A stretch of DNA of 64,000 nucleotides, from IMG/VR virus record IMGVR_UViG_3300044535_002275, positions 64,001-128,000 of that record; one strand, given 5' to 3'. Each line of letters opens with the position of its first letter. The first letter of the stretch is position 1. Positions 27,684 through 41,772 of the stretch are shown here, piece by piece. The DNA comes from a virus. The notes under the pieces were generated by a model. It had not been told where the DNA came from. It saw only the letters and a program-made list of their open reading frames with translations, and did not search any database. A program made the position numbers and the translations under genes.

Positions 27684-27706
27684 GATATTATTTATCATCG
27701 TTTGCT

Positions 27707-28045: not shown

Positions 28046-28054
28046 TTCTTAAAA

Positions 28055-28213: not shown

Positions 28214-28268
28214 TGTACCCCTGTGTTTATACAATATTATACCCGTCTTTTTCGGGTATAATATTTAG

Positions 28269-28511
28269 TTAAGCATCAGAGTCCTGCGGCGGACGTTCCT
28301 TGCGATCCAATGTGCGTGGCTTTAACAAGTAATCACGCCCGATCAAGCCTGCTTCGATTTCTCGTAGTGCAGTAACTGGCAGATCATTGTTGCATTGAAC
28401 CCTGGGTAACCACCCGCGTTTAAGTTCTCTGACTCTACGCGAAGCAATTAACACCAGGTCGTATTTGTTGCCCACTGCTAAGGCAGCAGCGTCACTGGTA
28501 ATTCTGGCCAT
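28269..28511 (-). CDS. rpoZ: RNA polymerase omega subunit
   Basis: MARIT...NKYDLVLIASRRVREL...VTALREIEAG. Confidence 0.9.
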   Translation of the reverse strand: MARITSDAAALAVGNKYDLVLIASRRVRELKRGWLPRVQCNNDLPVTALREIEAGLIGRDYLLKPRTLDRKERPPQDSDA

Positions 28512-28565
28512 TTTATTTCCTTAAGAAAGTTTAAGTACAAATTATACAACAATATCAAAAATTTG

Positions 28566-29444
28566 TCAATTCCAGTTAGGATCAAACAATACTTGCCCGT
28601 CTGTATTGATATCAAATCCCTTAACTGTGTAGTTGTTAGCTTGTTCTTCGTACCCGGCATAACCGCGAGGATTGCACAGCACAGTAGTTTCTCCAATTTG
28701 ATATCGGAAATCATCATGTGTGTGACCATGTGTCCAAACTCTAATTTCGGGATGGTCCAGCATGAACTCGCTGAGATCACTAGAGTAACCACCGTTCATT
28801 AAATGGTCATCGGCATACTTGGGTTTGATACTGAGCTTGCTGGGTGCATGATGAGTAACCACAACTACCGGTCTAGGATCAGGTCTAGCACGATTGTTTT
28901 CTAACGCAATGCGAAAAAAAGTCAAGGTATCCTTGTGGTGACGATACGCAATTTCTGGCTGGAAACGATAGTAATCGTTGTTGTCATTTTGATAACGAAT
29001 GATCCTAAAATCGTTCATGCAGCTTTTGAGATGAAACATGGTGAGATCATCACCACCGTTCATGTCAGTCCACAAAGTAGCACCCAAAAACAACACACCG
29101 TCCAGCTCGATACTTTCTTTTTCCAGCAAGTACACGTTGGTGGGCAACTGGCTTTTGATGTGATCGTAGGTTTTGTTAAATGTAAAACTGTAGTGTTCGT
29201 GGTTGCCCATGACCCAGATCACATGGCGATATTTTTGACTACATTCTTCCAGTAAAAATCGATAGTAGCGATCAGGCCGTTTAGCAGCCGATTCAAAAGG
29301 TAATGTAACCTGCTCAGGGTTGTAGTCTTTTTCGCTGAGATTTTTGGCTTCAAATACATCACCAGACAGAATCAAGACATCACCCCCGGGCAAGGTCAAG
29401 TCACTAAATTCCAAATGAAGGTCACTAACTAGGTCCACGTGCAT
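28566..29444 (-). CDS. Metallophosphoesterase
   Basis: SDLHLEF, LSGD, GNHEHY, THHAP, HGHTH. Confidence 0.9.
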   Translation of the reverse strand: MHVDLVSDLHLEFSDLTLPGGDVLILSGDVFEAKNLSEKDYNPEQVTLPFESAAKRPDRYYRFLLEECSQKYRHVIWVMGNHEHYSFTFNKTYDHIKSQLPTNVYLLEKESIELDGVLFLGATLWTDMNGGDDLTMFHLKSCMNDFRIIRYQNDNNDYYRFQPEIAYRHHKDTLTFFRIALENNRARPDPRPVVVVTHHAPSKLSIKPKYADDHLMNGGYSSDLSEFMLDHPEIRVWTHGHTHDDFRYQIGETTVLCNPRGYAGYEEQANNYTVKGFDINTDGQVLFDPNWN

Positions 29445-29555
29445 TTTAATTTCTCCAAATACTCAGTAGAAACCATTAGTTTCTGCTGCAGTCGCATAAA
29501 TACTTTCATAGTAGAAACACTGAGTCTACTGCCATTTTAACACAAAACTTATATC

Positions 29556-29723
29556 ATGTCAATACTTAACTTACTAGAACGCCTTGCAGAAATGTTCCCT
29601 AACCAGGATTATCACTCACGCATGGAGCGTTATATACGGCTGTGTCGGCCACAATCAGCAGCAGAAGTAGATCATTGCCAGCGGCAATTTGAAAGAAACG
29701 AATTCAGGAGATTGGGATTATGA
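29556..29723 (+). CDS. Small protein MSILNLLERLAEMFP...
   Basis: 55-aa ORF read manually; first of three closely spaced small ORFs after a CATAAATA motif. Confidence 0.5.
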   Translation: MSILNLLERLAEMFPNQDYHSRMERYIRLCRPQSAAEVDHCQRQFERNEFRRLGL

Positions 29724-29812
29724 AAGCATTTTTTAAATCAATATTGAGCAGCATGCAAGACGCAATGGCATTGCGAGCAGAACTATATATTAAAACAAGA
29801 GGATGGGAATAA
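29720..29812 (+). CDS. Small protein MKAFFKSILSSMQDAMALRAELYIKTRGWE
   Basis: ATGA overlap with the previous ORF; AGGAG upstream. Confidence 0.45.
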   Translation: MKAFFKSILSSMQDAMALRAELYIKTRGWE

Positions 29813-29814
29813 TC

Positions 29815-29943
29815 GTGAAAATCTTAAAGAAAATTGCAGCTTTTTTTGAATTTTTTGGCCGAGCAAGATCTGCTGGTATATTGGCAAGACAAGGTCGACG
29901 CCAAGAAGCAATCGACCATATCCAAGGTTCAAGAATCGTTTAA
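29815..29943 (+). CDS. Small protein MKILKKIAAFFEFFGRARSAGILARQGRRQEA...
   Basis: GTG start 2 nt after the previous stop; amphipathic helix. Confidence 0.45.
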   Translation: MKILKKIAAFFEFFGRARSAGILARQGRRQEAIDHIQGSRIV

Positions 29944-29954
29944 CAGTTGAAGTT

Positions 29955-30314
29955 TTAAGACTGTGGTCCGTACTTGTTGTCACCGGGAGTTGGTGGAATA
30001 AAAATTAGAGCAATTGCCACAGCAAATCCCACATAGGGAATAAGATACAAAAATACCCAGCAACCGCTTTGGTCGAAGTCTCTTATACGTTGAGCTGAAA
30101 CAATCATGCTCATTACGTACAAGACAATGAATGCTGGTACCATGATGATGAGGCTAAGTCCGTAAGACAAAAATGCAAAAACGGTACCTACAATGACCAC
30201 TGCAATGGCCAGCGCGATCAATGCCACGTTGGCCAATACATAGCTCTTTCGACCGCGACGTCCTTCAAATTTAAACATGCTACCAAAAAAAGATTGTGCT
30301 TGAGTGTTGTCCAC
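29955..30314 (-). CDS. DUF805 inner-membrane protein
   Basis: FEGRRGRKSY, QRIRDFDQSG, GDNKYGP motifs. Confidence 0.85.
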   Translation of the reverse strand: MDNTQAQSFFGSMFKFEGRRGRKSYVLANVALIALAIAVVIVGTVFAFLSYGLSLIIMVPAFIVLYVMSMIVSAQRIRDFDQSGCWVFLYLIPYVGFAVAIALIFIPPTPGDNKYGPQS

Positions 30315-30391
30315 TGTGGGATCTCCTGATTAAGTTAATATATTTGTATTGTACTGTGTGATATATTACTGATCAACTGCTTTGGTGATAT

Positions 30392-30466
30392 TGGTGCCCC
30401 CACCCGGAATCGAACTGGGATTTGATGATTACAAGTCAACTGTAATAGCCGTTATACTATAGGGGC
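30392..30466 (-). tRNA. tRNA-Thr(TGT)
   Basis: Cloverleaf, loop CTTGTAA, CCA encoded. Confidence 0.92.
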
Positions 30467-30476
30467 GTGAAACTGT

Positions 30477-30683
30477 TTACTCAACTGATTCAACAGCTAC
30501 AACCTGTCCGATGTAGCTTTTTCGACTTTTTACAATCCGAATTCGATTGAGAATTTTTGCTTTAATTTTCTTTTTTCCTTCTTTTTCTAATACAGACTCT
30601 AGTTGACTCACTGTCAATCCACCAAGCCTAATTTTACCAGTTTTGGTTTTGTTTGGATCTCTAACTTGATTACGTTGCGACAT
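30477..30683 (-). CDS. Small basic hypothetical protein
   Basis: AAGGA Shine-Dalgarno; lies between tRNAs. Confidence 0.55.
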   Translation of the reverse strand: MSQRNQVRDPNKTKTGKIRLGGLTVSQLESVLEKEGKKKIKAKILNRIRIVKSRKSYIGQVVAVESVE

Positions 30684-30701
30684 TTTATTCCTTTAAAATT
30701 T

Positions 30702-30789
30702 TGGCGGGTAGTATAGGAGTCGAACCTATCCACCGGTTTCCCAGTGAGGGATTAGCAATCCCTTGCCTTAACCGCTCGGCCAACTACCC
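30702..30789 (-). tRNA. tRNA-Ser(GCT)
   Basis: Long variable arm, loop TTGCTAA, G73. Confidence 0.93.
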
Positions 30790-30801
30790 AATAATCTTAT
30801 T

Positions 30802-30996
30802 TTATAGCAAATCTTTTAAATTTGCAATCTGCGCTGGACTCAAAACCAATTCGAACTGTGTCTGCACACTTCCGTCTCTACGAGCATGATCCCATTCTGT
30901 TAGGAATCTAATTTGTTTGTGTCCTGCTGGTTTAGCTATGTCTCTGATTTCTAAAATAGTTCGAAATCCGTCGTTGTCATTAATAACTGTTTTCAT
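30802..30996 (-). CDS. Hypothetical protein
   Basis: AGGA Shine-Dalgarno. Confidence 0.5.
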   Translation of the reverse strand: MKTVINDNDGFRTILEIRDIAKPAGHKQIRFLTEWDHARRDGSVQTQFELVLSPAQIANLKDLL

Positions 30997-31003
30997 TTTA
31001 ATC

Positions 31004-31453
31004 CTAAGTATTTGCGTCTGTAAATAATTTAGTAAATTCTGGATCCTTGCTAAAGACTCGCACAGATGATGACAAACGAGCTACTAAATGTATTCCAGTT
31101 TCGGAATGTTCTTGGCACCATTCAAACACTTGGTCTTTCACGGGACGATTGGATAGTACCAACAACACATACCGATAGTTTTCAATCGATCTGTTTACTA
31201 AAATAACACCTGACTGATCCGGGCGCATCCATTCGGGTACACGGGTGTTTATTTTCCAGTGACATTTGAATGTTTGGCAGGGCGTTTCTGGTCGGATCAT
31301 GTAGATACCGCAACCTGATTGATTCAAGTAATGACAAGGTTTTCCGGGATAAAATTCGTGTCCGTATGCTTCGCCAGTTAACCAACCTTCACAACACATG
31401 CGGCAACTGCTGCAGGCTCGGTCTACGGACTTTTTACTAAGTATCGGTATCAT
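31004..31453 (-). CDS. YkgJ-like cysteine-cluster protein
   Basis: CxxCxxCC...PCxxL...CxIYxxRPxxPCxxFxC. Confidence 0.7.
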   Translation of the reverse strand: MIPILSKKSVDRACSSCRMCCEGWLTGEAYGHEFYPGKPCHYLNQSGCGIYMIRPETPCQTFKCHWKINTRVPEWMRPDQSGVILVNRSIENYRYVLLVLSNRPVKDQVFEWCQEHSETGIHLVARLSSSVRVFSKDPEFTKLFTDANT

Positions 31454-31494
31454 CCATTAATTATGCAAAATATATCAGGATGGTAAAATAAAAT

Positions 31495-31571
31495 TGGATG
31501 CAGGGGCTGGATTCGAACCAGCGACCTCCAGGTTATGAGCCTAGCGGGATGACCAACTTCCCTACCCTGCG
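31495..31571 (-). tRNA. tRNA-Met(CAT), initiator-like
   Basis: C1:A72 mismatch, loop CTCATAA; anticodon stem has AGG/CCT rather than GGG/CCC. Confidence 0.9.
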
Positions 31572-31581
31572 ATTGATTGTT

Positions 31582-31785
31582 CAATGGCCACTTGCGTCCC
31601 CGCTAGCCCCATTCTGAGTTGTCTACCCTGTCGATCCATTTATTTTTCTGGACAGGTTGGCTCCTGCCCTACGGTGTTTTCAAGACGCGGCGGTAATGCC
31701 GCCTTGAGGACTGACCGTATGTACCCTGCTGGTATGGCTGCAGCAATCGCCCCCTATACTTACGAGTAGGGATCCCGGGATTCTA
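31582..31785 (-). ncRNA. Candidate structured ncRNA (about 200 nt), family unknown
   Basis: GC-rich spacer between tRNAs with at least five hairpins or multiloops and no credible ORF. Confidence 0.6.
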
Positions 31786-31790
31786 AAAGT

Positions 31791-31868
31791 TGGCGACTCG
31801 GACGGGATTCGAACCCGTGATCTCTTGCGTGACAGGCAAGCGTATTAGGCCAACTATACTACCGAGCC
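31791..31868 (-). tRNA. tRNA-Asp(GTC)
   Basis: Cloverleaf, loop CTGTCAC, G73. Confidence 0.93.
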
Positions 31869-31872
31869 AATT

Positions 31873-31956
31873 TGGTGGAGGTGGTAGGGATCGAACCTAC
31901 CTGGCGTTAGCCCACGAATTTACAGTCCGCTGTCCCACCGTTGGAACATCACCTCC
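31873..31956 (-). tRNA. tRNA-Tyr(GTA)
   Basis: Loop CTGTAAA, variable arm, atypical D arm. Confidence 0.9.
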
Positions 31957-31986
31957 AAAAACTTTTGTGTTGCTATTATAGCAACG

Positions 31987-32150
31987 CCATATTGAAGCAC
32001 ACTGACTTCCACGGGATGACATCAGACGAATCTGCAACTTCCCCTTCAACGACAGTATCAGAGGGTGGAGTCGAACCACCACAGCGTGCTTCAATATGGC
32101 TCCCCAATCTTGTCACAGTTGTGTGCTACTATCAACTGAGCTATTGGAGA
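31987..32150 (-). ncRNA. Rearranged tRNA-like element: T-arm-less mini-tRNA followed by a long hairpin containing a T-arm
   Basis: TCTCCAA/TTGGGGA-G-CCA acceptor plus D arm (32150-32097); then GCCATATTGAAGCAC/GTGCTTCAATATGGC stem enclosing GGTGG-TTCGACT-CCACC. Confidence 0.5.
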
Positions 32151-32229
32151 ATAGTTTGTTTTTAAAGAAAACAAATTACTTACTGTAGTACTATTATAAC
32201 AAAAGTTGATTAACGTGTCAACTGTGTTG

Positions 32230-32652
32230 TTACATGATTTCTTTGTACAAAGAACCGTTGTATTTTCTCAACGCCTGATCAACATCTTGCTTCAGTAAAG
32301 CAACAACCTCGTCGGCAGATGAATAAATTAACCCTGCTTCTTCCAACGCAGATCGACGTAGCAATTCGCTAGCCTGAGTCCATCCCCAGACCGCACTGTC
32401 GGATCCAAATGCCAACTTAGGCCATCTTGTTTCAATCCAGCTCGACAGATGTTTTAATGCTGTTATAGTATTGGCCGGATGACTGCGAGAAATAGCAGAA
32501 AACCAATCGTTACTTAAAAGAGAAGAAAAAAAAGAACCAGGCTCTAGGCCGTGGATCAAATAACGATACATGGGACTGTAATATTCTGGCTCAACCTCCC
32601 ACTCACTAGCACTTTTTGCCAGCAGTAACTTTGAGTGTATTGTTAGGTTCAT
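32230..32652 (-). CDS. Hypothetical protein
   Basis: YLIHGLEPGSFFSSLLSND phage-type segment. Confidence 0.6.
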   Translation of the reverse strand: MNLTIHSKLLLAKSASEWEVEPEYYSPMYRYLIHGLEPGSFFSSLLSNDWFSAISRSHPANTITALKHLSSWIETRWPKLAFGSDSAVWGWTQASELLRRSALEEAGLIYSSADEVVALLKQDVDQALRKYNGSLYKEIM

Positions 32653-32665
32653 GGTATCAAAAATG

Positions 32666-32740
32666 TGGTACTCCGTAGGGGAGTCGAACCCCTCTTGCAG
32701 GAATGAAAATCCTGAGTCCTAACCGATAGACGAACGGAGC
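32666..32740 (-). tRNA. tRNA-Glu(TTC)
   Basis: Cloverleaf, loop TTTTCAT. Confidence 0.93.
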
Positions 32741-32746
32741 ATTAAG

Positions 32747-32820
32747 TGGAGCAGGGTAAGAGAATCGAACTCTCCGCATCAGCTTGGAAGGCTGAGGTAT
32801 TACCACTATACGAACCCTGC
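32747..32820 (-). tRNA. tRNA-Gly(TCC)
   Basis: Cloverleaf, loop CTTCCAA, U73; promoter TTGACA-17-TATAAT at 32869-32841. Confidence 0.93.
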
Positions 32821-32911
32821 TTGTTAATTACTATACTGCTATTATAACAACGGACTATTTAGTTGTCAATGATTTTCGATGCCTGTTGCATTTCTACAAC
32901 TAAATATTTCT

Positions 32912-33730
32912 ATGATAATATTATTTGGATGCAGTTGGGCAAGAAATGCCTGGGCACACACCAGTCAAGAATCTACATATGGTTATAAGCACTGGAGACT
33001 GCCTGATACCTGGGCAATAAATTCTCCCAACTGGTTGAATTCTTTTTTTACCAAAGACACAGTGGTAAATTTTGCTAGATACGCTAATACCAATGATTGG
33101 ATGATTAGAGATCTTTATCACGCTACCAACACTGTATCAAACTTTCCTGATCGAGTGGATTTCTTAGTGTTTCAAACAGATCCCTTGCGCATATTCGCTC
33201 CCAGACAAGACTACAATGATTACAACATTGTTTGGCCTAATTTTGTAGCTTGGGCCGAAAAGAAACAGTTTGATTGGCAAACTCGCTCATTTGATGATAT
33301 GCTGGAAGTCATTTATAGAGATTATTATCAAAACTTAGTAAGTTTTCAAAGTTCCAGTCAGTATATGAATCCCGGAAAAGATATAAATCTTTGGTTAGTA
33401 GGCGGTGTCAGTCGTGTGCATCCGTGTATCAAGGATTTTGATCTTTGTACAATCATCGATAGCTTAACTGGATTTTTTGGATTTGCCAACGACTGTTGCC
33501 TTGAGAATCGTGCTAGTCTTATTAGCCTCACAAAATTTTGGGGAGATAAGCTAACTGATCCGGCAAAAAAACATGCACTTCGGGAAGCATGGAAACACTA
33601 CGATGACTTATTACAACAGAAGGAAGATTTTTGGGTCGAAAATCAGGAACTCTTTGCTGGCCGGCATACAACCGAAAAAGCCATGCAACAAATCGCCAAA
33701 CACATAGAATCTCAAATAGGATTGGGGTGA
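32912..33730 (+). CDS. SGNH-like hypothetical protein
   Basis: N-terminal LFGCSW block; late CTAAATA motif just upstream. Confidence 0.55.
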   Translation: MIILFGCSWARNAWAHTSQESTYGYKHWRLPDTWAINSPNWLNSFFTKDTVVNFARYANTNDWMIRDLYHATNTVSNFPDRVDFLVFQTDPLRIFAPRQDYNDYNIVWPNFVAWAEKKQFDWQTRSFDDMLEVIYRDYYQNLVSFQSSSQYMNPGKDINLWLVGGVSRVHPCIKDFDLCTIIDSLTGFFGFANDCCLENRASLISLTKFWGDKLTDPAKKHALREAWKHYDDLLQQKEDFWVENQELFAGRHTTEKAMQQIAKHIESQIGLG

Positions 33731-33797
33731 CTAACGGGGTTCGAACCCGTGACGACAGATCCACAATCTGTAGTGTTGCCGCTACACTATAGTCACC
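33723..33797 (-). tRNA. tRNA-His(GTG)
   Basis: G-1 and C73, loop TTGTGGA. Confidence 0.93.
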
Positions 33798-33883
33798 ACT
33801 ATAAAACTAACTAACTTTTCTTTAGTTGAAATCTGCAGCTCTAAATCCATAAATACGTGACAACTATTTTTACAGGAGCTGTT

Positions 33884-34336
33884 ATGTCGAATAAAGACTA
33901 CAAAGAAATGAGTGCAAGCGAAAAGAAAAAAGAAGATTGGATGAATTCAAAATGGCGTCCAATGATGGGTTGGATGTACATGGCAGTGTGTATGGCTGAC
34001 TTTGTGCTGTTTCCAGTTCTCTGGAGCCTAGTACAAGCAGCACACGGCGGTAGCGTACAAACACAGTGGAACCCAATTACACTACAAGGCGCAGGCCTGT
34101 TCCACATGGCCATGGGTGCTATTTTGGGTATTGCAGCATTTGGTCGTACACAAGAAAAGATGGCCGGTGCTAACAATGGCGGAATTGCTGCAGCACCTGC
34201 AGCCAGTTCGTTCTCTGCACCACCAGCAACCAGTTTTAGCGCACCTACCCCTACCCCAGCACCTGCCAGTTTCAACAGCGGCGGAATTGCAGCAGGTAAA
34301 GCTCGCCCGGCTGAATTTGAGCATCCGGCAATTTAA
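33884..34336 (+). CDS. Holin-like membrane protein
   Basis: WRPMMGW and GIAAFGRTQEK motifs with TM segments; first gene of lysis cassette; late promoter CATAAATA. Confidence 0.7.
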   Translation: MSNKDYKEMSASEKKKEDWMNSKWRPMMGWMYMAVCMADFVLFPVLWSLVQAAHGGSVQTQWNPITLQGAGLFHMAMGAILGIAAFGRTQEKMAGANNGGIAAAPAASSFSAPPATSFSAPTPTPAPASFNSGGIAAGKARPAEFEHPAI

Positions 34337-34349
34337 TAAGGAAAACAAA

Positions 34350-34577
34350 ATGAAATTAATATACTCAACTATTTTAGCACTGAGCCTTGTTGCCGGTGTT
34401 CACGCACAAGACACCAAACCTGCTGCGAACAAAGGCGAAAAGAAAGAAGTCTGCACCGACGTCAAAGACAAGGCTGGTGCTGTGGTCAAGAACAAAGACG
34501 GCACGGTCAAACAAACTTGCAAAACCATCACTGTGCGTAAGAAGTACGAAGGTACTGCAGTTCCCGACAAAAAATAA
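34350..34577 (+). CDS. Small secreted basic protein with a Cys pair
   Basis: Signal peptide; AAGGA Shine-Dalgarno. Confidence 0.6.
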   Translation: MKLIYSTILALSLVAGVHAQDTKPAANKGEKKEVCTDVKDKAGAVVKNKDGTVKQTCKTITVRKKYEGTAVPDKK

Positions 34578-34587
34578 GGAGTACTAG

Positions 34588-35442
34588 ATGGCTTTTAATT
34601 TTAATTTTACTCAACAACAACTAGCGCAGTTAATTCCCGGCAACCCTTACGTAGCACAATGGTATTCTGCACTGAACATGATCTTGCCTGACTACGGAAT
34701 TGATACTGTGCCACGTGTAGCAGCGTTTGTTGCTCAATGTGCGCACGAAAGTGCCAACTTCAAGTTCTTGAAAGAAAACTTGAACTACAAGGCCGAAAGC
34801 CTGATGCGAGTCTGGCCCAGTCGTTTCCCTTCGATAGATGTTGCTCGTCAATATGCCATGCAGCCAGAAAAGATTGCCAATAAGGTCTATGGTGGCCGCA
34901 TGGGCAATGGCACAGAAGAAACCGGTGACGGATGGCGTTACGCCGGCAAAGGTCTTATTCAGTTGACTGGCAAGGACAACTACACACGCTTTGCTGAAAG
35001 TATTGACACCCCAGTGGAAGAAATTCCTGAATACCTACAGACATTTGAAGGTGCTGTGCAAAGTGCCTGTTGGTTCTGGGAAGTCAACAATTTAAATCAG
35101 TGGGCCGATGCCGGCGATATACTAACCTTGACCAAACGCATCAACGGTGGTGTCATTGGCCTGGAAGATCGCAAAAAGCACTATGCACATGCTTTGCATG
35201 TGTTGGGTGGCGATTCAGCACACCATGTTGCAGAAAGTTCTGCCGCTGTCAACACTGCTCAAGTTCTACGACGCGGCAGTCGTGGGGACACTGTGGCTGC
35301 CATGCAGATCAAACTGGGATTGAGCGGAGACGGTGACTTTGGTCCAGCAACAGAACGTGCTCTAATGGGTTGGCAGCGTGAAAACGGATTAGAACCCGAC
35401 GGCGTTGCTGGTCCCGCGACACTAGCCAAATTGTTGGCCTAA
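34588..35442 (+). CDS. GH19 endolysin with C-terminal peptidoglycan-binding domain
   Basis: AQCAHES, ENLNY, GKGLIQLTGKDNY, TKRINGG; DGDFGPATERA...DGVAGPAT PG-binding motif. Confidence 0.93.
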   Translation: MAFNFNFTQQQLAQLIPGNPYVAQWYSALNMILPDYGIDTVPRVAAFVAQCAHESANFKFLKENLNYKAESLMRVWPSRFPSIDVARQYAMQPEKIANKVYGGRMGNGTEETGDGWRYAGKGLIQLTGKDNYTRFAESIDTPVEEIPEYLQTFEGAVQSACWFWEVNNLNQWADAGDILTLTKRINGGVIGLEDRKKHYAHALHVLGGDSAHHVAESSAAVNTAQVLRRGSRGDTVAAMQIKLGLSGDGDFGPATERALMGWQRENGLEPDGVAGPATLAKLLA

Positions 35443-35446
35443 CATC

Positions 35447-35887
35447 ATGTGGCAAATCATGTGGATGCTGGGGTTGATACCAGCCTGGCTATGGCACGTA
35501 TTACTGGGAGTTTCCCTGGTGACCATAGCTGCCACATATTTTCTACGCATGATTCCATTCTTTGGCACAAACGCAATTCAGTTGCGTTTTGTTGCTACAC
35601 TGATATTGATTTTTACTGTCTGGATGGAAGGCGGCATAGCCAACGAAGCCAAGTGGCAACAACGTATTCAAGACTTGGAAGCCCGAGTAGCTGCTGCTGA
35701 AAAGCAGGCTGCTGAAACCAATACCAAAATTGAAACAGTTTATGTTGATCGAGTTCAAGTGGTCAAAGAAATACAATATGTAGTTCGCAAAGATATTGAA
35801 CGTGCTGCTACCGAACTGGATGCCAACTGTCGTGTTTCGCCTCGTGCTATTGAACTATTAAATCAAGCCACAGGTGTTAAGAAATGA
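35447..35887 (+). CDS. Inner-membrane spanin (Rz-like)
   Basis: TM segments plus coiled coil, downstream of endolysin. Confidence 0.65.
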   Translation: MWQIMWMLGLIPAWLWHVLLGVSLVTIAATYFLRMIPFFGTNAIQLRFVATLILIFTVWMEGGIANEAKWQQRIQDLEARVAAAEKQAAETNTKIETVYVDRVQVVKEIQYVVRKDIERAATELDANCRVSPRAIELLNQATGVKK

Positions 35888-36141
35888 AATTTATTGTCAT
35901 TGCTGTTTTACTAGTATTGACTGGTTGTGTTGCTCCGGTCAAACGAGAATTCCCTGTTATTCCACCCAGCTTGGAAAAGCCCTGTGGTAATTTATTAGAT
36001 GTTCCAACCACTACCCGACTCAGTAAAGTTCTTGAAGTAGTTACCGAAAACTATGCATTATATCGAGAGTGTCAGATCAAAAATGAAACTTGGCTAGATT
36101 GGTATCAAAAACAAAAGAAGATATTTGATAGTGTAAAATAA
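35884..36141 (+). CDS. Outer-membrane spanin lipoprotein (Rz1-like)
   Basis: Lipobox LTGC, Pro-rich, follows Rz-like gene. Confidence 0.7.
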   Translation: MKFIVIAVLLVLTGCVAPVKREFPVIPPSLEKPCGNLLDVPTTTRLSKVLEVVTENYALYRECQIKNETWLDWYQKQKKIFDSVK

Positions 36142-36142
36142 T

Positions 36143-36218
36143 TGGTGCGCAGTGACGGGCTCGAACCGCCGACATTCTGCGTGTAAAGCAGACACTCTAC
36201 CAACTGAGCTAACCGCGC
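36143..36218 (-). tRNA. tRNA-Val(TAC)
   Basis: Cloverleaf, loop TTTACAC. Confidence 0.93.
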
Positions 36219-36224
36219 CGTATT

Positions 36225-36308
36225 TGGTGCTCCAGGTCGGACTCGAACCGACACGCCTTTCGGCACTAGTTCCTAAGACTAGCGTGGCTACCATTACACC
36301 ACCGGAGC
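36225..36308 (-). tRNA. tRNA-Leu(TAG)
   Basis: Variable arm GCC-GAAA-GGC, loop CTTAGGA. Confidence 0.93.
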
Positions 36309-36338
36309 TTTATAAATATAACTCTTAGAGGAATACTT

Positions 36339-36779
36339 ATGAAAAAATTATTACTTGCATTACTATTTGTACCTGCGATTGCTGTATCTCAAACACCAAA
36401 AGAACCTGTGGGCGTCACATACGATGCTCAAATCATCCGCGTCAGCGACGGCGATACCATTGTGATTGCTGCTGCATTTTTGCCACCGCCCTTGAAGCCT
36501 GAGCTAGCTGTGCGTATCTACGGAGTTGACACTCCGGAAAAAGGACACAGAGCACAATGTCCTCAAGAAGCAGCACGAGCCGAACAAGCATCGGCTTGGA
36601 CCAAACAGCTGATTGCCAGCAGCACCAAGCGTCAAGTGATCTTATACAAGTGGGACAAGTTCGGCGGTCGTGTGATCGGCGACATCATCGTCAACGGTCA
36701 AAGTGTGCGTCGCGGACTTATTGCTAATGGTTTTGCCAGAGAATACTACGGCGAAGCAAAAACCAGCTGGTGTAACTAA
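36339..36779 (+). CDS. Secreted thermonuclease (SNase family)
   Basis: Signal peptide; RVSDGDT, RIYGVDTPE, DKFGGRV; TATAAATA late promoter at about 36311. Confidence 0.9.
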   Translation: MKKLLLALLFVPAIAVSQTPKEPVGVTYDAQIIRVSDGDTIVIAAAFLPPPLKPELAVRIYGVDTPEKGHRAQCPQEAARAEQASAWTKQLIASSTKRQVILYKWDKFGGRVIGDIIVNGQSVRRGLIANGFAREYYGEAKTSWCN

Positions 36780-37003
36780 TCTCTACGCATCTTCCAAGTG
36801 TAGTTTTCTCCGCTTGGAAGACGTCCATCTTTAACACTGTCAACACCCATGGCACCAACTTGGTTGGCATTTTCTCCAACCATAGCAACATAAGCTCGAC
36901 CTTGAGTGCGTAGACGATTGGCTTGTGTCAAGGCTTCGACCATTTCTGCATAATCTTCGCTGCATGCTGTTCCGTTAGGATCAGTCCAATAAACTTTGTA
37001 CAT
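36776..37003 (-). CDS. Hypothetical protein (start MYKVYW)
   Basis: Start placed outside tRNA-Phe. Confidence 0.55.
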   Translation of the reverse strand: MYKVYWTDPNGTACSEDYAEMVEALTQANRLRTQGRAYVAMVGENANQVGAMGVDSVKDGRLPSGENYTWKMRRD

Positions 37004-37018
37004 TACTTTCTCTTTATC

Positions 37019-37094
37019 TGGTGCCGACCCCCGGTTACGATCCGGATTCTCCAATTCTTCAGACTGGCGTGAGGACCACCTTCACCTGATCGGC
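37019..37094 (-). tRNA. tRNA-Phe(GAA), non-canonical (A8, T-loop ATCGTAA)
   Basis: Cloverleaf, loop CTGAAGA, CCA. Confidence 0.85.
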
Positions 37095-37102
37095 ATTAAT
37101 AT

Positions 37103-37192
37103 TGGCGGAAGTGGTAGGATTCGAACCCACGGTGCGTTTCCACACTTCAGTTTTCAAGACTGCTGCCTTAAGCCAGACTCAGCCACACTTCC
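37103..37192 (-). tRNA. tRNA-Ser(TGA)
   Basis: Long variable arm, loop CTTGAAA, G73. Confidence 0.93.
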
Positions 37193-37200
37193 TTTAAGGG

Positions 37201-37314
37201 TGAACAAAGATATCCTCACTGCCACGACCAGATTTCCTTCGGCAGGGGTACGCCACTAGGCGGTTAGTAAAGATAACCCGTGTGCATTTAACACTGCTCG
37301 GATATCTTCGTTCA
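37201..37314 (-). ncRNA. Candidate structured ncRNA (about 115 nt), family unknown
   Basis: 15-bp closing stem TGAACGAAGATATCC/GGATATCTTTGTTCA with four internal hairpins. Confidence 0.6.
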
Positions 37315-37319
37315 TTGGT

Positions 37320-37395
37320 TGGTGGTGAGAGAGGGACTTGAACCCCCGACCTTGCGAATATGAATCGCCTGCTCTACCAACTAAGCTATATCACC
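37320..37395 (-). tRNA. tRNA-Met(CAT), elongator-like
   Basis: Cloverleaf, loop TTCATAT; Met versus Ile2 not certain. Confidence 0.85.
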
Positions 37396-37560
37396 ATATT
37401 GAAACGTACTCTGACAAAATCCGGTAAGATTATGCGTTGATCGATCTACTTGAATACGTTTCACTATAATGACATTGATGAAATGCTTAATAAGAAAGAA
37501 GCATACCTTAATCTTGGTTATAAGTTTCATTTACAGCTGGATCATAAATTATTAGAAAAC

Positions 37561-37636
37561 TGGTAGGGGCACTGGGGTACGATCCCAGAAAGCGACATTA
37601 AAAGTGTCATATGATATCCATTTTCATCATACCCCC
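37561..37636 (-). tRNA. tRNA-Lys(TTT), non-canonical T-loop ATCGTAC
   Basis: Cloverleaf, loop CTTTTAA, CCA. Confidence 0.85.
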
Positions 37637-37762
37637 ACTGTCTTTAATCTTTACTTCTCTACGCAAGGCCTTGTTGCTCTTGCGGTGACTTCCTGCCCCT
37701 GTCTTTTGTAGTACCAGGCAAACGAAGGGGTTACGTTTGGGTACGGTCAGTTTAGACTTCAT
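37607..37762 (-). CDS. Small basic protein MKSKLTVPKRNPFV...GAGSHRKSNKALRR; stop codon lies inside tRNA-Lys
   Basis: AAGGAG Shine-Dalgarno at 37773-37768; 51-aa ORF read manually. Confidence 0.6.
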   Translation of the reverse strand: MKSKLTVPKRNPFVCLVLQKTGAGSHRKSNKALRREVKIKDSGGMMKMDII

Positions 37763-37777
37763 AACTACTCCTTAAAA

Positions 37778-38068
37778 TTATGTTACTTTTTGTTTGTTTT
37801 TAACGGCACTAAGCAATGTTGACGCACGTTTGAGGTCAAAGTTTTTGTGGCGGTACATGTAGGTTTTTTTACGTTCCGCTACTACTAGAGCTTGTGCCAA
37901 CATGTACTTCTCATTAAAATTTAGAGACCGCATCATGGCGTCTTGCATGTCCACGACATCTAGTGCATACTCCAGCCACTTCTCTGTTGCTTTAATGCTG
38001 TCGTAAGTGCTAAAGCCCGCAGACTTGTTGCTGGTGTTGTATTTGTTAATAAAGTTGCGAGCTTGCAT
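37778..38068 (-). CDS. Hypothetical protein (start MQARNF)
   Basis: AAGGAG Shine-Dalgarno; promoter TTGACC-17-TATAAT at 38127-38099 plus palindrome at 38134-38151. Confidence 0.65.
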   Translation of the reverse strand: MQARNFINKYNTSNKSAGFSTYDSIKATEKWLEYALDVVDMQDAMMRSLNFNEKYMLAQALVVAERKKTYMYRHKNFDLKRASTLLSAVKNKQKVT

Positions 38069-38156
38069 AATAAACTCCTTGTTGATTAACAAGCAAGTAT
38101 TATAGCACTCAGCGAGTTAGTGGTCAAATCAACCGTTGCGTAATTACAACAAGATG

Positions 38157-38230
38157 TGGCAGGCCCACAAGGGTTCGAACCTTGACTGACAGAATCAAAA
38201 TCTGTAGTGCTACCATTACACTATGGACCA
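38157..38230 (-). tRNA. tRNA-Gln(TTG)
   Basis: Cloverleaf, loop TTTTGAT, G73. Confidence 0.92.
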
Positions 38231-38236
38231 ACAAAA

Positions 38237-38311
38237 TGGCTCCCCAGGGTGGTTACGATCCACCGACCAAATGATTAACAGTCATCTACTCTACCGCTGA
38301 GCTACTGGGGA
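38237..38311 (-). tRNA. tRNA-Asn(GTT), non-canonical T-loop ATCGTAA
   Basis: Cloverleaf, loop CTGTTAA; promoter TTGACC-17-TATAAT at 38361-38333. Confidence 0.9.
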
Positions 38312-38362
38312 ATAAAACTTTACTATAACTCTATTATAACTAAAACTGCATTACCGGTCAAC

Positions 38363-38830
38363 CTACCGATAGTACTGATTGACATGCTGTTGTATTTTAT
38401 CGTGGCTGATTTTGTAGTGACCATGTCCGGGACTGCGTTGCCCACGCCCAGAAGCATCAAACCAGTTATCGTACGGAATTCCGAATCGATCAAAATTGAC
38501 ATCAACTGAATGATAAGCTCCTACAGTTATTGCATACACCGGTTTGACAGTGACCTGCTTTAATACTTGCTTCACTGCAACAGCGCCGGCACTAAAACCA
38601 TACAGCTCATATGGTTGATTTAACTGTTGAACAAAATCAACTGCCGCAGCAGATTCCTGCCAGTTGTACACCAGTGAACAGGCTGATTTTTGTTCAGCGT
38701 ACTGATCAAATGCTGCTTGATCAAACACACCGCCGGCACCACGGAATCCAACAACATACAGATTGCAGTCTACATCGGGTGTGACAGCCGGAGTAAAAAA
38801 CCATAAAAACACAGTGAGAAAAATATCCAT
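38363..38830 (-). CDS. Secreted alpha/beta-hydrolase-like protein
   Basis: YGFSAGA nucleophile elbow (GxSxG). Confidence 0.55.
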   Translation of the reverse strand: MDIFLTVFLWFFTPAVTPDVDCNLYVVGFRGAGGVFDQAAFDQYAEQKSACSLVYNWQESAAAVDFVQQLNQPYELYGFSAGAVAVKQVLKQVTVKPVYAITVGAYHSVDVNFDRFGIPYDNWFDASGRGQRSPGHGHYKISHDKIQQHVNQYYR

Positions 38831-38843
38831 GTGTTATTTAACT

Positions 38844-38920
38844 TGGCCGGTCCTGAGAGACTCGAACTCCCAACCTCCAGTTTCGAAGACTGGCACTCTA
38901 TCCAATTGAGTTAAGGACCG
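38844..38920 (-). tRNA. tRNA-Arg(TCG)
   Basis: Cloverleaf, loop CTTCGAA. Confidence 0.9.
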
Positions 38921-38925
38921 TGTTG

Positions 38926-39020
38926 TGGTAGTAGCGTAGAGATTCGAACTCTATCGTTGCAGCCCATCTGACCGCTCTCCCAGGTTTATAAAACCCGGCC
39001 GCATACCAATGCTCGCTACC
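38926..39020 (-). tRNA. Atypical 95-nt tRNA with anticodon TAT, long variable arm and 4-nt D-loop (amino-acid identity uncertain)
   Basis: GGTAGCG/CGCTACT-A-CCA; GCAT-TGGT-ATGC; CCGGGT-TTTATAA-ACCTGG; variable stem GCGGTC/GGCTGC; TAGAG-TTCGAAT-CTCTA. Confidence 0.8.
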
Positions 39021-39038
39021 GTTAATTAAATTGTGTTA

Positions 39039-39116
39039 TGGAGGACAGGGTCGGATTCAAACCGACGGTTGTAGAGATTTGCAGTCACTTGCCTTGGATC
39101 ACTCGGCCACCTGTCC
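39039..39116 (-). tRNA. tRNA-Cys(GCA)
   Basis: Loop CTGCAAA, U73. Confidence 0.9.
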
Positions 39117-39121
39117 ATATT

Positions 39122-39195
39122 TGGTGCTCCCAACAAGAATTGAACTTGTGATTCAGTCTTACCAAGACTGTGGTATACCACTTACCTATAGGAGC
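39122..39195 (-). tRNA. tRNA-Thr(GGT)
   Basis: Cloverleaf, loop TTGGTAA. Confidence 0.92.
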
Positions 39196-39244
39196 AAGAA
39201 AACCAAGGCGTACATTTCTGCAGAGGCCCTGGCCGTGTTTACTG

Positions 39245-39727
39245 CTATGCTGCTTGTTGCTGATTTAAAATTTCTTTTAAACGATCAGCACAGTAGGATG
39301 CAGCAAATGCCTGTGGTTTGACACGGGGAACTACATTACACATGCCACGTATGTAACCAATGGCTTCATTGACCACACAGCTGGATCCGTGCATTTCGTT
39401 GGGATTAATATCTAGGTGTACTTCTACTAGACGATCTTCTAGTACCTCATTTAATTTTAAATAAAGTTCAGCAATCTTGTACACTTCGTTCATAAGTCGC
39501 ATGCGTGGCTTGTCTTTCTTTTGATCCCAGTCACGTTCACGTTGTACTTCTCCAAAAATCTTACATCCGTTATTGCCATTGATATGCACCACAATGGCTA
39601 GGGTGTAATCAGCATACCAAGCACCGTTCAGTTGGAATCGTTCGCTGTCGCCACCGATGTAGATACGGGTAGCAGGACCTTGCGCAAGAACAAATTCCTT
39701 TACTTCTTCTATATTGATACTGCGCAT
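39245..39727 (-). CDS. RNase H-like YkuK-family protein
   Basis: IYIGGDS, RMRLMNEV, EVHLDIN, KPQAFAASYCAD motifs. Confidence 0.8.
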   Translation of the reverse strand: MRSINIEEVKEFVLAQGPATRIYIGGDSERFQLNGAWYADYTLAIVVHINGNNGCKIFGEVQRERDWDQKKDKPRMRLMNEVYKIAELYLKLNEVLEDRLVEVHLDINPNEMHGSSCVVNEAIGYIRGMCNVVPRVKPQAFAASYCADRLKEILNQQQAA

Positions 39728-39753
39728 GTAACACCTTTGTGGTTAAACTAATT

Positions 39754-39829
<76 letters not shown>

Positions 39830-39836
39830 ATAAACT

Positions 39837-39912
39837 TGGAGCGGCTAACCGGGTTCGAACCGATGACGTCTTGCTTGGCAAGCAAGTACTCTACCAACTG
39901 AGCTACAGCCGC
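39837..39912 (-). tRNA. tRNA-Gly(GCC)
   Basis: Cloverleaf, loop TTGCCAA, U73. Confidence 0.93.
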
Positions 39913-39955
39913 ATTAAATTATTTTACTACATAGCTGTGTATATAGTAACAAACT

Positions 39956-40029
39956 TGGTGGACCGTGAGAGAATCGAACTCTCAACTCCGGCTTGCAAAG
40001 CCAGTGTTATCCCATTTAACTAACAGCCC
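39956..40029 (-). tRNA. tRNA-Ala(TGC)
   Basis: G3-U70 pair, loop TTTGCAA. Confidence 0.93.
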
Positions 40030-40035
40030 ATAACT

Positions 40036-40111
40036 TGGTCTGAGTACAAGGATTTGAACCTTGGACGCCTGGTCCCAAACCAGGTATGTTACCAGACTAC
40101 ACTATACTCAG
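40036..40111 (-). tRNA. tRNA-Pro(TGG)
   Basis: C1-G72, loop TTTGGGA. Confidence 0.93.
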
Positions 40112-40119
40112 ATACGACT

Positions 40120-40193
40120 TGGTTCTCACGAGAAGAATTGAACTTCTGTCTATCGGTTATCAGCCGATTGCTCTACCATTGAGCTACATGAGA
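40120..40193 (-). tRNA. tRNA-Ile(GAT)
   Basis: Cloverleaf, loop CTGATAA. Confidence 0.92.
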
Positions 40194-40369
40194 ATAACTT
40201 TCAATTTATAAAGCACACTGACCTCAATGCGCTTTATAAATTGCACAGGCCTTCCCTGTGCTGCCTATTTTACTTTCGTTGTTACCGCCAACGATTTCAT
40301 CCAGGACTCCGCCCATTCGAACATGTTTAGCGTGGGCTCTGGGTTCTCGTTACCCATTCCACGTACTAC

Positions 40370-40452
40370 AAAAGCAAAAACCCCAGGGTTTTTAATCCTG
40401 GGGTCTTGGTTAAGAATATACGGACTGTGTATATGGTCTAACCAAGACCCCC
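40370..40452 (-). promoter_or_regulatory. Attenuator: mutually exclusive antiterminator and intrinsic terminator at the head of the tRNA array
   Basis: GGGGTCTTGGTTA(40451-40439)/TAACCAAGACCCC(40412-40400) overlaps terminator ACCCCAGG(40404-40397)/CCTGGGGT(40387-40380)+TTTTGCTTTT. Confidence 0.8.
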
Positions 40453-40578
40453 TGATGGCTCGCGATCGCTTGTAATCATCTCGACGGTTGCAAACCCGCA
40501 ATTTGACCAATAGGCTACTGTGCCTAGTTTGGGCTGTTGCGATATCTGCACGAAGTGATTAAGAGTGTTTATTTTCAT
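40438..40578 (-). CDS. Putative attenuator leader peptide (46 aa, contains all 20 amino acids)
   Basis: MKINTLNHFVQISQQPKLGTVAYWSNCGFATVEMITSDREPSGGLG*; ATG 9 nt after the -10 element; stop codon at the end of the antiterminator arm. Confidence 0.7.
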   Translation of the reverse strand: MKINTLNHFVQISQQPKLGTVAYWSNCGFATVEMITSDREPSGGLG

Positions 40579-40587
40579 ATTAAAGTA

Positions 40588-40616
40588 ATTGTACGTGTTT
40601 ATTTATACCTTGTCAA
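40588..40616 (-). promoter_or_regulatory. Dual early/late promoter of the tRNA leader
   Basis: TTGACA(40616-40611)-17-TACAAT(40593-40588) with TATAAATA (40607-40600) in the spacer. Confidence 0.85.
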
Positions 40617-40625
40617 CCAGTAATC

Positions 40626-40904
40626 CTACTTAGTCTGTTCAAATATTTTGCTGTATTTTCTCAATTTTTCTTCCTTGCGGAGCCAAGCACGTTGCAAACC
40701 TTCTTCGGATACTACACCGTCTTCGTGCAACAGTTCGATCATAAACATAACATCACCTATTTCCTGCTCTAAATGATCGCGGTGTAAGCGACCATCTGGG
40801 TGGCGGCTGTCAATACCAAATCTTCGGCACTTGCTGACTTCCTGTATCACTTCAGCACATTCCTCCTGAAGTATGTCTAAAATTTCTTGTATACGTTTAT
40901 TCAT
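40626..40904 (-). CDS. MazG-like nucleotide pyrophosphohydrolase
   Basis: EECAEVIQ...LEQEIGDV motif. Confidence 0.8.
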   Translation of the reverse strand: MNKRIQEILDILQEECAEVIQEVSKCRRFGIDSRHPDGRLHRDHLEQEIGDVMFMIELLHEDGVVSEEGLQRAWLRKEEKLRKYSKIFEQTK

Positions 40905-40942
40905 TTTTTATAATTTAAAAATTTTTCAATATTGCAGTAGCA

Positions 40943-41500
40943 TTATTTGCACATAAACCATGTGGGTTGCTTGCTGGCCCAATTATCGCCTGGTGCACAG
41001 TCGATAACATAAATGTCTCGTTGCTTACGTTCGGCAAAGATGTTTAAATTCTCAACCACTAGTGGCCAAGCAGTTTGATTATAATCATCACCGCTGAATA
41101 TACCACCGGGTTTTACTTTAGGCCACCAATCGTCAAAAGTCTGACCGTTTTCTTGTCCAGTATGTGCAAAGCCATCAATGTAAATCCAGTCAAAATAATT
41201 GTTCTCGAACACATTAACAACTTCGCTAAATTTCATCTTGATTATAGATGATCTATTTCTAAAAGGTATCAAATTTTGCATTGCGGCTTGGTAACGGCCG
41301 TCGTCTGGATCAAACATGTCTACAGTATAAAGATATTCTAAATCAGAATTTTCTAACACTTGCCGAGAAAAATCTCCCCCTGCTGTGCCCAATTCAATTC
41401 CTATACCTTGAGACTTCACCAGTTTAACAACATCGTGACGAGAACCAAATTTGTGAACAACTCCGTTCAATTCAAATTCTTTTACTGTGTGTATTTTCAT
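40943..41500 (-). CDS. Class I SAM-dependent methyltransferase (Methyltransf_24-like)
   Basis: IELGTAGG, FDWIYIDGFAH, KPGGIFSGDDY. Confidence 0.85.
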   Translation of the reverse strand: MKIHTVKEFELNGVVHKFGSRHDVVKLVKSQGIGIELGTAGGDFSRQVLENSDLEYLYTVDMFDPDDGRYQAAMQNLIPFRNRSSIIKMKFSEVVNVFENNYFDWIYIDGFAHTGQENGQTFDDWWPKVKPGGIFSGDDYNQTAWPLVVENLNIFAERKQRDIYVIDCAPGDNWASKQPTWFMCK

Positions 41501-41521
41501 AAGATTCTTATTTTAGAAATA

Positions 41522-41606
41522 TGGTGCGACGGGCCGGAATCGAACCGGCATGCTGTTAAGCGAGAGATTTTAAGTCTCTTGTGTCTACCTATTTCACCAC
41601 CATCGC
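41522..41606 (-). tRNA. tRNA-Leu(TAA)
   Basis: Variable arm, loop CTTAAAA. Confidence 0.93.
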
Positions 41607-41617
41607 ATTTTACTTTC

Positions 41618-41692
41618 TGGCCCGGCGTACAGGAATCGAACCCATATTCAGCGGGTAGAAGCCGCTTGTATTATCCATTATACTAACGCCAG
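41618..41692 (-). tRNA. tRNA-Arg(TCT)
   Basis: Cloverleaf, loop CTTCTAC. Confidence 0.9.
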
Positions 41693-41695
41693 TAT

Positions 41696-41772
41696 TGGTG
41701 CCCCCGGAGGGATTTGAACCCCCGACCAATCGATTATGAGTCGACTGCTACTGACCACTGAGCTACAGGGGC
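41696..41772 (-). tRNA. tRNA(CAT), probably Ile2 (lysidine type)
   Basis: GCCCCT acceptor and CGACTCATAATCG arm resemble proteobacterial Ile2. Confidence 0.85.

Follow-up and report, generated by a model that had tools for sequence, protein, structure and literature searches.

AUA is read almost everywhere in bacteria through lysidine, which is made by the essential enzyme TilS, and IleRS reads A35, U36, A37, A38 and A73. To our knowledge, only Leu, Ser, Tyr and Sec have long-armed tRNAs in bacteria, and we know of no bacterial class II tRNA that serves as an IleRS substrate. In bacterial tRNA-Sec (RF01852), a 6-bp D stem bears a 4-nt loop, the anticodon stem has 6 bp and the variable arm is long; the acceptor/T branch is 8/5, the discriminator is G73 and the anticodon is UCA.

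The Mycoplasma mobile tRNA-Ile2(UAU) carries UAU together with U33, A37, A38 and A73, and AUA is presumably read by it as Ile without lysidine; its body is of the ordinary class I type, and it works with a co-adapted IleRS (Arg865) and ribosome (PMC3575796). E. coli-type IleRS, whose wobble-contact site has a Trp conserved among tilS-bearing species, charges UAU tRNAs poorly, and on E. coli ribosomes a UAU tRNA reads AUG as well as AUA (PMC3575796). Because of this poor charging and AUG reading, a phage with a UAU tRNA in a tilS-type host needs a way round one or both problems.

Other tRNAs with a UAU anticodon have been described. The 8/4 allo-tRNA(UAU) of Acidobacteria and soil metagenomes combine this anticodon with a long variable arm and a D tetraloop; their anticodon stem is long, and they weakly resemble the tRNA-Sec model. 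As a group, allo-tRNAs branch 8/4 or 9/3, have G73 or U73 as discriminator and occur with many different anticodons. Their stems are often defective, they are linked to toxin-antitoxin loci, and those tested were inactive (PMC5389517). The nematode nev-tRNA-Ile(UAU), the only class II tRNA(UAU) that has been tested, has A73, coexists with a conventional AUA reader and takes Leu; nev-tRNAs are derived from tRNA-Leu(UAA), whose D and V arms they keep (PMC3333845). The Sinorhizobium jumbo phage AP-J-162 encodes a tRNA-Ile(UAU) that is reported to be of ordinary build, a phage-supplied reader for a codon commoner in the phage than in its host (PMC11242549).

Gene, fold and family of the phage tRNA(UAU)

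The window analyzed here is a stretch of 64,000 nt (positions 64,001 to 128,000) of the IMG/VR record IMGVR_UViG_3300044535_002275, a 159.5-kb virus record that is 44% complete according to CheckV. The source virus is a T4-like giant phage of lake water. ARAGORN identified a 95-nt tRNA(tat) on the minus strand, with the anticodon at position 31. The features of the gene are given below in window coordinates, where tRNA position i corresponds to coordinate 39021-i.

38926-39020, minus strand: whole tRNA(UAU) gene (ARAGORN, fold, family covariance model at 110.5 bits, covariation)
39014-39020, minus strand: 5' strand of the acceptor stem, positions 1-7, pairing with 38930-38936 (positions 85-91), with G1.U72 and U3-A70
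39001-39013, minus strand: A8 followed by the D arm, a 4-bp stem (9-12:17-20) with the tetraloop UGGU; pairs 11:18 and 12:17 covary
38980-38998, minus strand: anticodon arm, positions 23-41, a 6-bp stem with the 7-nt loop Y-U-UAU-A-A; five of six pairs covary
38954-38979, minus strand: variable region of 26 nt, positions 42-67, with a GAGA linker, a 6-bp V stem (46-51:57-62), the loop A-G-A-U-N and an AACGR linker (covariation, invariant positions)
38937-38953, minus strand: T arm, positions 68-84, a 5-bp stem with the loop UUCGAAU; four of five pairs covary, and 54:58 is swapped in some members
38926-38929, minus strand: discriminator A73, found in 68 of 68 homologues, and genome-encoded CCA

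In the window copy the anticodon loop is UUUAUAA, with the anticodon at 38988-38990, the V loop is AGAUG and the 3' linker is AACGA. The single base A8 separates the acceptor and D stems, and G21 and G22 form a hinge after the D arm. The minimum free energy fold of the 95-nt sequence has -34.6 kcal/mol (z = -2.9), and none of 200 shuffles was equally stable. The anatomy given in the preliminary description (95 nt, 7-bp acceptor stem, G1-U72, A73, TGGT loop, 6-bp anticodon stem, TAT and long arm) was confirmed by ARAGORN, this fold and covariation. The tRNA has the general features of an elongator: its acceptor/T branch adds up to 12 bp, its anticodon loop of 7 nt contains U33 and has a purine at 37, the D loop carries GG, and a T loop and a 3' CCA are present. 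It does not have a class I body with a short variable loop, as its 26-nt variable region contains a covarying 6-bp stem.

Rfam returned tRNA-Sec (RF01852) as the best match at 24.9 bits, below the gathering score of 47; RF00005 was not the retained match. The body had been called Sec-like, and the tetraloop, the 6-bp anticodon stem and the long arm agree with this, but the label itself depends on the sub-threshold RF01852 match. Compared with tRNA-Sec, the branch is 7/5 in place of 8/5, the D stem 4 bp in place of 6 bp, the discriminator A73 in place of G73 and the anticodon UAU in place of UCA. Membership of tRNA-Sec was ruled out by the score, the branch, the anticodon and A73.

The comparison with the UAU tRNAs gave a similarly mixed picture. 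The phage tRNA has the anticodon, U33, A37, A38 and A73 of the M. mobile tRNA, and for both of them, recognition by IleRS and misreading of AUG are problems. Unlike that tRNA, it meets foreign host enzymes, and its variable region spans 26 nt, its D loop 4 nt, its acceptor/D gap one base and its anticodon stem 6 bp. With the allo-tRNA(UAU) it shares the anticodon, the D tetraloop, the long V arm, the long anticodon stem and the weak similarity to the tRNA-Sec model, and its D stem is 4 bp. It differs from them in its 7/5 branch, A73, sole UAU anticodon, intact stems, location in phage tRNA operons and near-absence from cellular genomes. Membership of the allo-tRNAs was ruled out by the 7/5 branch, by A73 in all 68 homologues and by the finding of UAU alone even in an anticodon-free scan, and the likeness to allo-tRNAs and tRNA-Sec drawn earlier fails on the same three features. 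Like the nematode nev-tRNA, the phage tRNA is of class II type with UAU and A73 and coexists with a conventional AUA reader; unlike it, the phage tRNA has no likeness to tRNA-Leu (on the family model, the tRNA-Leu of the phage reaches 21.7 bits, in the range of unrelated tRNAs), and the AUA codons of these phages evolve as Ile. The AP-J-162 tRNA-Ile(UAU) is likewise supplied by a phage, but it is reported as an ordinary tRNA.

Homologues were collected with several patterns. An exact 19-mer of the anticodon arm matched 15 IMG/VR contigs, each with a 95-nt tRNA(tat). A V-arm pattern with the anticodon and D arm left free gave 43 loci, comprising 41 intact members, one split gene and one chance match; all 41 intact members carry UAU, and the type of D arm is the same in every one. 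A D-arm-plus-UAU pattern with the V arm left free placed the family in at least 119 IMG/VR contigs with at least 76 unique sequences, and the length was exactly 95 nt in 109 of 121 among the matches listed. Positions written into a search pattern are invariant by construction. In unconstrained scans, GAGA, G48, G49, G53, A54, G57-G61 and the AACG linker were fixed or nearly so, and GAGA, G53 and A54 were invariant in the scan that left them free.

In an alignment of 68 distinct 95-mers, the cloverleaf was paired in 98.5% of cells, double changes occurred at 19 of 30 pairs, and compensatory changes were present in all five helices. As a control, structures slid by 1-3 columns paired in only 30-44% of cells, and the covariation score of the family was matched by none of 500 shuffles. 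Double changes were found in five of the seven acceptor pairs. Pair 1:72 is G.U in 60 sequences, A-U in seven and G-C in one, and pair 3:70 is U-A in all 68. V-stem pair 46:62 was seen as C-G, G-C and U-A. Pair 28:36 (canonical 31:39), which adjoins the anticodon loop, is unpaired in 29 of 68 members, so the anticodon stem is better described as five solid pairs and one weak pair. UAU, A37 and A73 are present in 68 of 68 sequences and A38 in 65. Since pair 68:84 covaries through A-U, C-G, U-A and G-C and A8 does not change at all, the acceptor/T branch is 7/5 and not 8/4, and the 8/4 fold was ruled out on these grounds.

When a covariance model of the family was run on 0.89 Mb of related phage DNA, members scored 57-118 bits and every other tRNA 29 bits or less. 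Each genome examined had one copy of the family, and the same search found no paralogue with another anticodon in them. tRNA(UAU) is a real, strongly conserved tRNA family. ARAGORN misses the member in a 264-kb contig (G002, locus L031), in which pair 31:39 is A.C, and standard annotation therefore under-counts this tRNA.

Companion tRNAs and the decoding of AUA

The gene lies in a minus-strand array at 27.6-41.8 kb of the window that comprises 27 tRNA genes together with a permuted tmRNA, and CCA is encoded by all 27 tRNAs. tRNA(UAU) is located 18 nt after tRNA-Cys and 5 nt ahead of tRNA-Arg(UCG), a neighbor that was seen again in many related contigs. The sub-cluster to which it belongs probably forms a single precursor transcript. 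This sub-cluster and the two other isoleucine tRNAs of the array are as follows.

38844-39195, minus strand: sub-cluster Thr(GGU)-Cys-tRNA(UAU)-Arg(UCG), with spacers of 5, 18 and 5 nt (ARAGORN coordinates)
41696-41772, minus strand: tRNA-Ile2(CAU), a TilS-dependent AUA reader (full-length match to E. coli genes annotated tRNA-Ile, 85.7% identical)
40120-40193, minus strand: tRNA-Ile(GAU) (ARAGORN; Rfam RF00005, 74.1 bits)

The full-length identity to the E. coli genes supports the earlier assignment of a probable Ile2 to 41696-41772. A35, U36, A37, A38 and A73 are common to tRNA(UAU), tRNA-Ile(GAU) and tRNA-Ile2(CAU). The phage holds both a TilS-dependent and a TilS-independent candidate AUA reader, an arrangement that looks redundant.

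ATA amounts to 14.2 per 1000 codons and 24% of Ile codons in the source contig, and to 12-20 per 1000 codons in these phages. To determine how AUA evolves, ORFs of the contig were aligned to three relatives (G001, 235 kb and complete; G002; and G004), and the unambiguous codons opposite each codon were tallied; gene calls came from a simple ORF picker, and the codon counts pool several relatives per site and are thus non-independent. The residues opposite ATA rank I > V > L. This is the shape found for ATT and ATC, unlike that of Leu codons, in which L far exceeds I, and unlike that of Ser codons. Likelihood classification of 419 ATA sites placed Ile first, with lnL values of -61 for Val, -165 for Leu and below -270 for the rest. 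As a control, each codon was left out in turn, and the correct amino acid was recovered for every codon of the multi-codon amino acids. Sites at which two relatives agree gave I 11, V 8 and L 6. ATA sites are conserved less than ATT and ATC sites (self-alignment of 0.36 versus about 0.50), a gap that lies within the spread of other codon families, such as TCT versus AGT.

An independent protein gave the same picture. In the phage UDP-galactopyranose mutase (UGM), ATA occurs at the Ile of HIGGN, at the Ile of AISLVG and at two further positions; among structures 1i8t, 4mo2 and 4rpg, Ile occupies three of the four in every structure and the remaining one in two of the structures. The alignment of residues with ATA codons, which the preliminary description had put forward as a check, thus returned an Ile profile and not a Leu or Ser one. 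These patterns of substitution indicate that AUA is an isoleucine codon in these phages. This meaning could be due to the phage tRNA-Ile2(CAU) and that of the host instead of tRNA(UAU).

Several long ORFs of the contig contain no ATA (635-1720, 89973-91145, 92566-93444 and 151374-152219), which suggests that some genes, probably highly expressed ones, still avoid AUA. The ORF at 89973-91145 (window 25973-27145) encodes a Gram-negative porin (PF13609, E = 8e-44).

The domains PF00133 (class Ia, Ile/Leu/Val/Met type) and PF00587 (Ser/Thr/Pro/His type) were absent from five related phage genomes, three of which are complete. With neither domain in these genomes, host enzymes must charge tRNA(UAU). 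In the mechanism that we propose, a polycistronic precursor with an encoded CCA end would yield the mature tRNA, and host IleRS would presumably charge it with Ile. The UAU anticodon would pair with AUA and deliver Ile, and lysidine from host TilS would not be needed. Given an AUA frequency of about 14 per 1000 codons and the U34 tRNAs encoded for nearly every codon box, tRNA(UAU) would complete the set of readers of A-ending codons. On balance, it is probable, though well short of certain, that tRNA(UAU) is a TilS-independent tRNA-Ile(UAU), charged by host IleRS, that serves as an AUA reader of T4-like giant freshwater phages. Three options had been proposed earlier, insertion of Ser or Leu at AUA, bypass of TilS and action as a decoy, and bypass of TilS is the best supported of them.

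The extra arm and alternative readings

The conservation of tRNA(UAU) is unevenly distributed. Its core is near-constant while all stems drift by compensatory changes: pairwise identity is at least 74% (mean 91%) over A8-G22 and the variable region, and falls to as little as 25% in the acceptor and T stems. The core and the V-loop tip are also more conserved than the T loop. Three signals point to an L-shaped fold. The T-loop pair 54:58 is U:A in 48 of the 68 sequences and swapped to A:U in 19, the D loop has a GG resembling G18G19, and R67, the last base of the variable region, is identical to D-stem base 17 in all 68 sequences, being G where the pair is C-G or U.G and A where it is U-A. This tracking of pair 12:17 by R67 would fit a triple of the 13:22:46 type.

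The V-loop tip is AGAU in 113 and GGAC in four of the 117 contigs among the matches listed, and 52:55 switches from A:U to G:C jointly on two different backbones. On the simplest reading, A52 and U55 would pair across the loop, with the invariant G-A at the tip and the variable base 56 bulged out. The closing pair 51:57 is formed in 68 of 68, which makes the V loop a pentaloop. The V stem, at 6 bp, has the length of the anticodon stem.

That the extra arm is kept for some job tied to tRNA(UAU) is well supported. The core, which consists of A8, the tetraloop of the D arm, the GG hinge, both linkers (GAGA and AACGR) and the V hairpin with its invariant G-A tip, may fold into a module. This module would either stand in for the D-loop tertiary contacts that are missing or provide an extra handle for a partner. 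Candidate partners are IleRS, an enzyme that handles U34, and the ribosome. Such a handle could offset the two handicaps of UAU tRNAs, poor charging by IleRS and misreading of AUG, possibly through added IleRS affinity, control of the fate of U34 or changed behavior in the A site. A more specific proposal, tentative and on our estimate unlikely, is that the arm would be an identity or fidelity module added so that tilS-type host machinery accepts a UAU tRNA; in its boldest form, the module would be a second 'anticodon' arm that bears GAU and is read by IleRS.

This boldest form, a special case of the preferred explanation, holds that host IleRS reads GAU in the V loop instead of the poorly recognized UAU. 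GAU is the ordinary Ile anticodon, it is centered in the V loop in 113 of the 117 contigs among the matches listed and also in a second body type of this tRNA (loop CAGAUUA), and it is presented on a stem as long as that of an anticodon arm; in addition, E. coli-type IleRS is poor on UAU (PMC3575796). If the loop triplet set the amino acid, however, phages with GAC should read AUA as Val. In the four diverged phages with GAC (contigs of 138 kb in total), ATA is frequent at 12-20 per 1000 codons and still evolves as Ile, with I 195, V 94 and L 56 among 457 residues opposite ATA and an lnL of -150 for Val, which weakens the idea. GAC arose there through A52G and U55C together, as expected of a cross-loop pair, and the V loop is a closed pentaloop without equivalents of U33, A37 and A38. 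Class I synthetases, moreover, approach from the side opposite the variable arm. We therefore regard a GAU-reading arm as quite doubtful. If it existed, tRNA(UAU) would be the first tRNA to carry the signal for charging on one arm and the triplet for decoding on another, as well as the first isoleucine tRNA of class II. A cloverleaf in which the GAU hairpin is the true anticodon arm was ruled out, as the loop lacks U33 and is a closed pentaloop.

A role outside decoding is also rather improbable. The RNA would then act as a decoy or sponge for a host tRNA-cleaving defense enzyme, serve a phage enzyme as substrate or regulate the tRNA array, with the UAU loop and the extra arm as recognition sites. 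The unusual conservation of the single-stranded core and V-loop tip, beyond that of the T loop, is in keeping with this, as are the apparent redundancy with tRNA-Ile2(CAU) and the uncharacterized RNase H-like gene (PF04308) within 5 kb in 42 of 120 loci. On the other hand, every feature needed for translation is kept, including the 7/5 branch, CCA, A73, U33, A37, the 7-nt loop, the GG of the D loop and the 54:58 pair; the gene occupies an in-register place within a tRNA operon, and the phage has a real demand for AUA reading. We know of no anticodon nuclease aimed at AUA readers. Most allo-tRNA(UAU), for their part, are inactive in translation (PMC5389517), a precedent in favor of a non-decoding RNA.

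It is very improbable that tRNA(UAU) is a missense tRNA, that is, a substrate of host LeuRS (or SerRS) by virtue of its long arm and A73 that places Leu or Ser at AUA. The class II-like arm and A73 suit such a role, and A73 is the key LeuRS determinant. There are also precedents, as the nev-tRNA(UAU) with A73 takes Leu and not Ile (PMC3333845), and allo-tRNAs insert Ser in E. coli (PMC5389517). Nevertheless, in the classification given above (n = 419), Leu is 165 lnL units worse than Ile and Ser lies below every amino acid listed, and ATA is found at invariant Ile positions of UGM; the earlier suggestion of Ser or Leu at AUA was thus left unsupported. With 12-20 ATA per 1000 codons, nearly every phage protein would be affected. 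The D arm, with its 4-bp stem and 4-nt loop, and the V arm are unlike those of the phage tRNA-Leu and tRNA-Ser, which score 19-22 bits on the family model, as unrelated tRNAs do. The presence of A73 instead of G73 speaks against SerRS, and a fixed anticodon would not be required by an anticodon-blind synthetase. Leu or Ser decoding was rejected on the codon profiles and the UGM sites. Charging with an amino acid other than Ile would make the tRNA a natural recoding device of the phage.

A decaying pseudogene or gene-finder artefact, which the sub-threshold tRNA-Sec match as the sole Rfam result might suggest, has next to no probability and is effectively refuted by the covariation, given that compensatory changes affect each of the five helices in an alignment of 68 distinct sequences and that the length is nearly constant.

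Distribution and a second body type

A blastn search of the 95-nt sequence against 50,697 GenBank phage records (INPHARED) gave no match. A pattern scan of 185,579 bacterial and archaeal species (one genome each), with the anticodon left free, gave 27 hits, 26 of which were chance matches in coding DNA; the sole true member lies terminally on a 3-kb contig from a metagenome bin (MAG). From the blank in GenBank phages and this single true match, the family is confined to uncultured phages as far as the collections show. The contigs that carry it reach 465 kb, and a full-text literature search found no description of it. Judged from sequence, tRNA(UAU) is most likely an AUA-reading tRNA-Ile(UAU) on a new phage-specific, long-armed body, and it occurs widely among giant aquatic phages. 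Its wide occurrence, its restriction to phages, its long arm and its strict link to UAU together suggest that phages have found another route to AUA decoding. The tRNA makes testable how IleRS can accept U34 and how misreading of AUG is avoided, and it would be a compact, portable AUA decoder for codon-reassignment work.

The genes around the family loci are of T4 type and include RegA, clamp loader, RNase H, HNH endonuclease and Hsp20 genes. In the window, a gene for a 160-aa PF04308 'RNase H-like' protein (YkuK/DUF458, phrog_11311) lies at 39245-39727 on the minus strand, directly upstream of the Thr-Cys-UAU-Arg block. Its homologues are the most frequent neighbors, those counted above within 5 kb of tRNA(UAU) in 42 of 120 related loci. 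The protein may act in tRNA processing, or its gene may simply be syntenic.

In a 345-kb relative (G003, locus L188:667-1522, minus strand, the same as L037), the family gene is split inside the anticodon loop by an insert of about 760 nt. The insert contains an ORF for a 220-aa zinc-finger endonuclease (phrog_15137, E = 1e-11), followed by a second tRNA(UAU) that ARAGORN missed. This second tRNA is 100 nt long and long-armed, with an ordinary 8-nt D loop, G1.U72, A73 and the V loop CAGAUUA, and the same body type was found free-standing in a 363-kb contig. The insert looks like a free-standing homing endonuclease that carries its own replacement tRNA. Replacement of tRNA(UAU) rather than its loss suggests that the function is kept under selection. 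Since the second body type has an ordinary D loop, the trait shared by the two is the long arm and not the small D loop.

The remainder of the array showed several minor features. The array at 27681-41772 covers 19 amino acids plus initiator Met, Ile2 and tmRNA and has no tRNA-Phe, in a contig that is 44% complete; Phe(GAA) is present in one related locus (L008). An initiator-like tRNA at window 31495-31571 (minus strand), with a C1 x A72 mismatch, has U73, and its homologue in the relative G004 has A73. The Lys-UUU and Asn-GUU tRNAs at window 37561-37636 and 38237-38311 (minus strand) carry the T loop AUCGUAA with the reversed pair A54:U58, in place of the near-universal U54:A58; the reversed pair is the one also present in the 19 swapped members of the tRNA(UAU) family.
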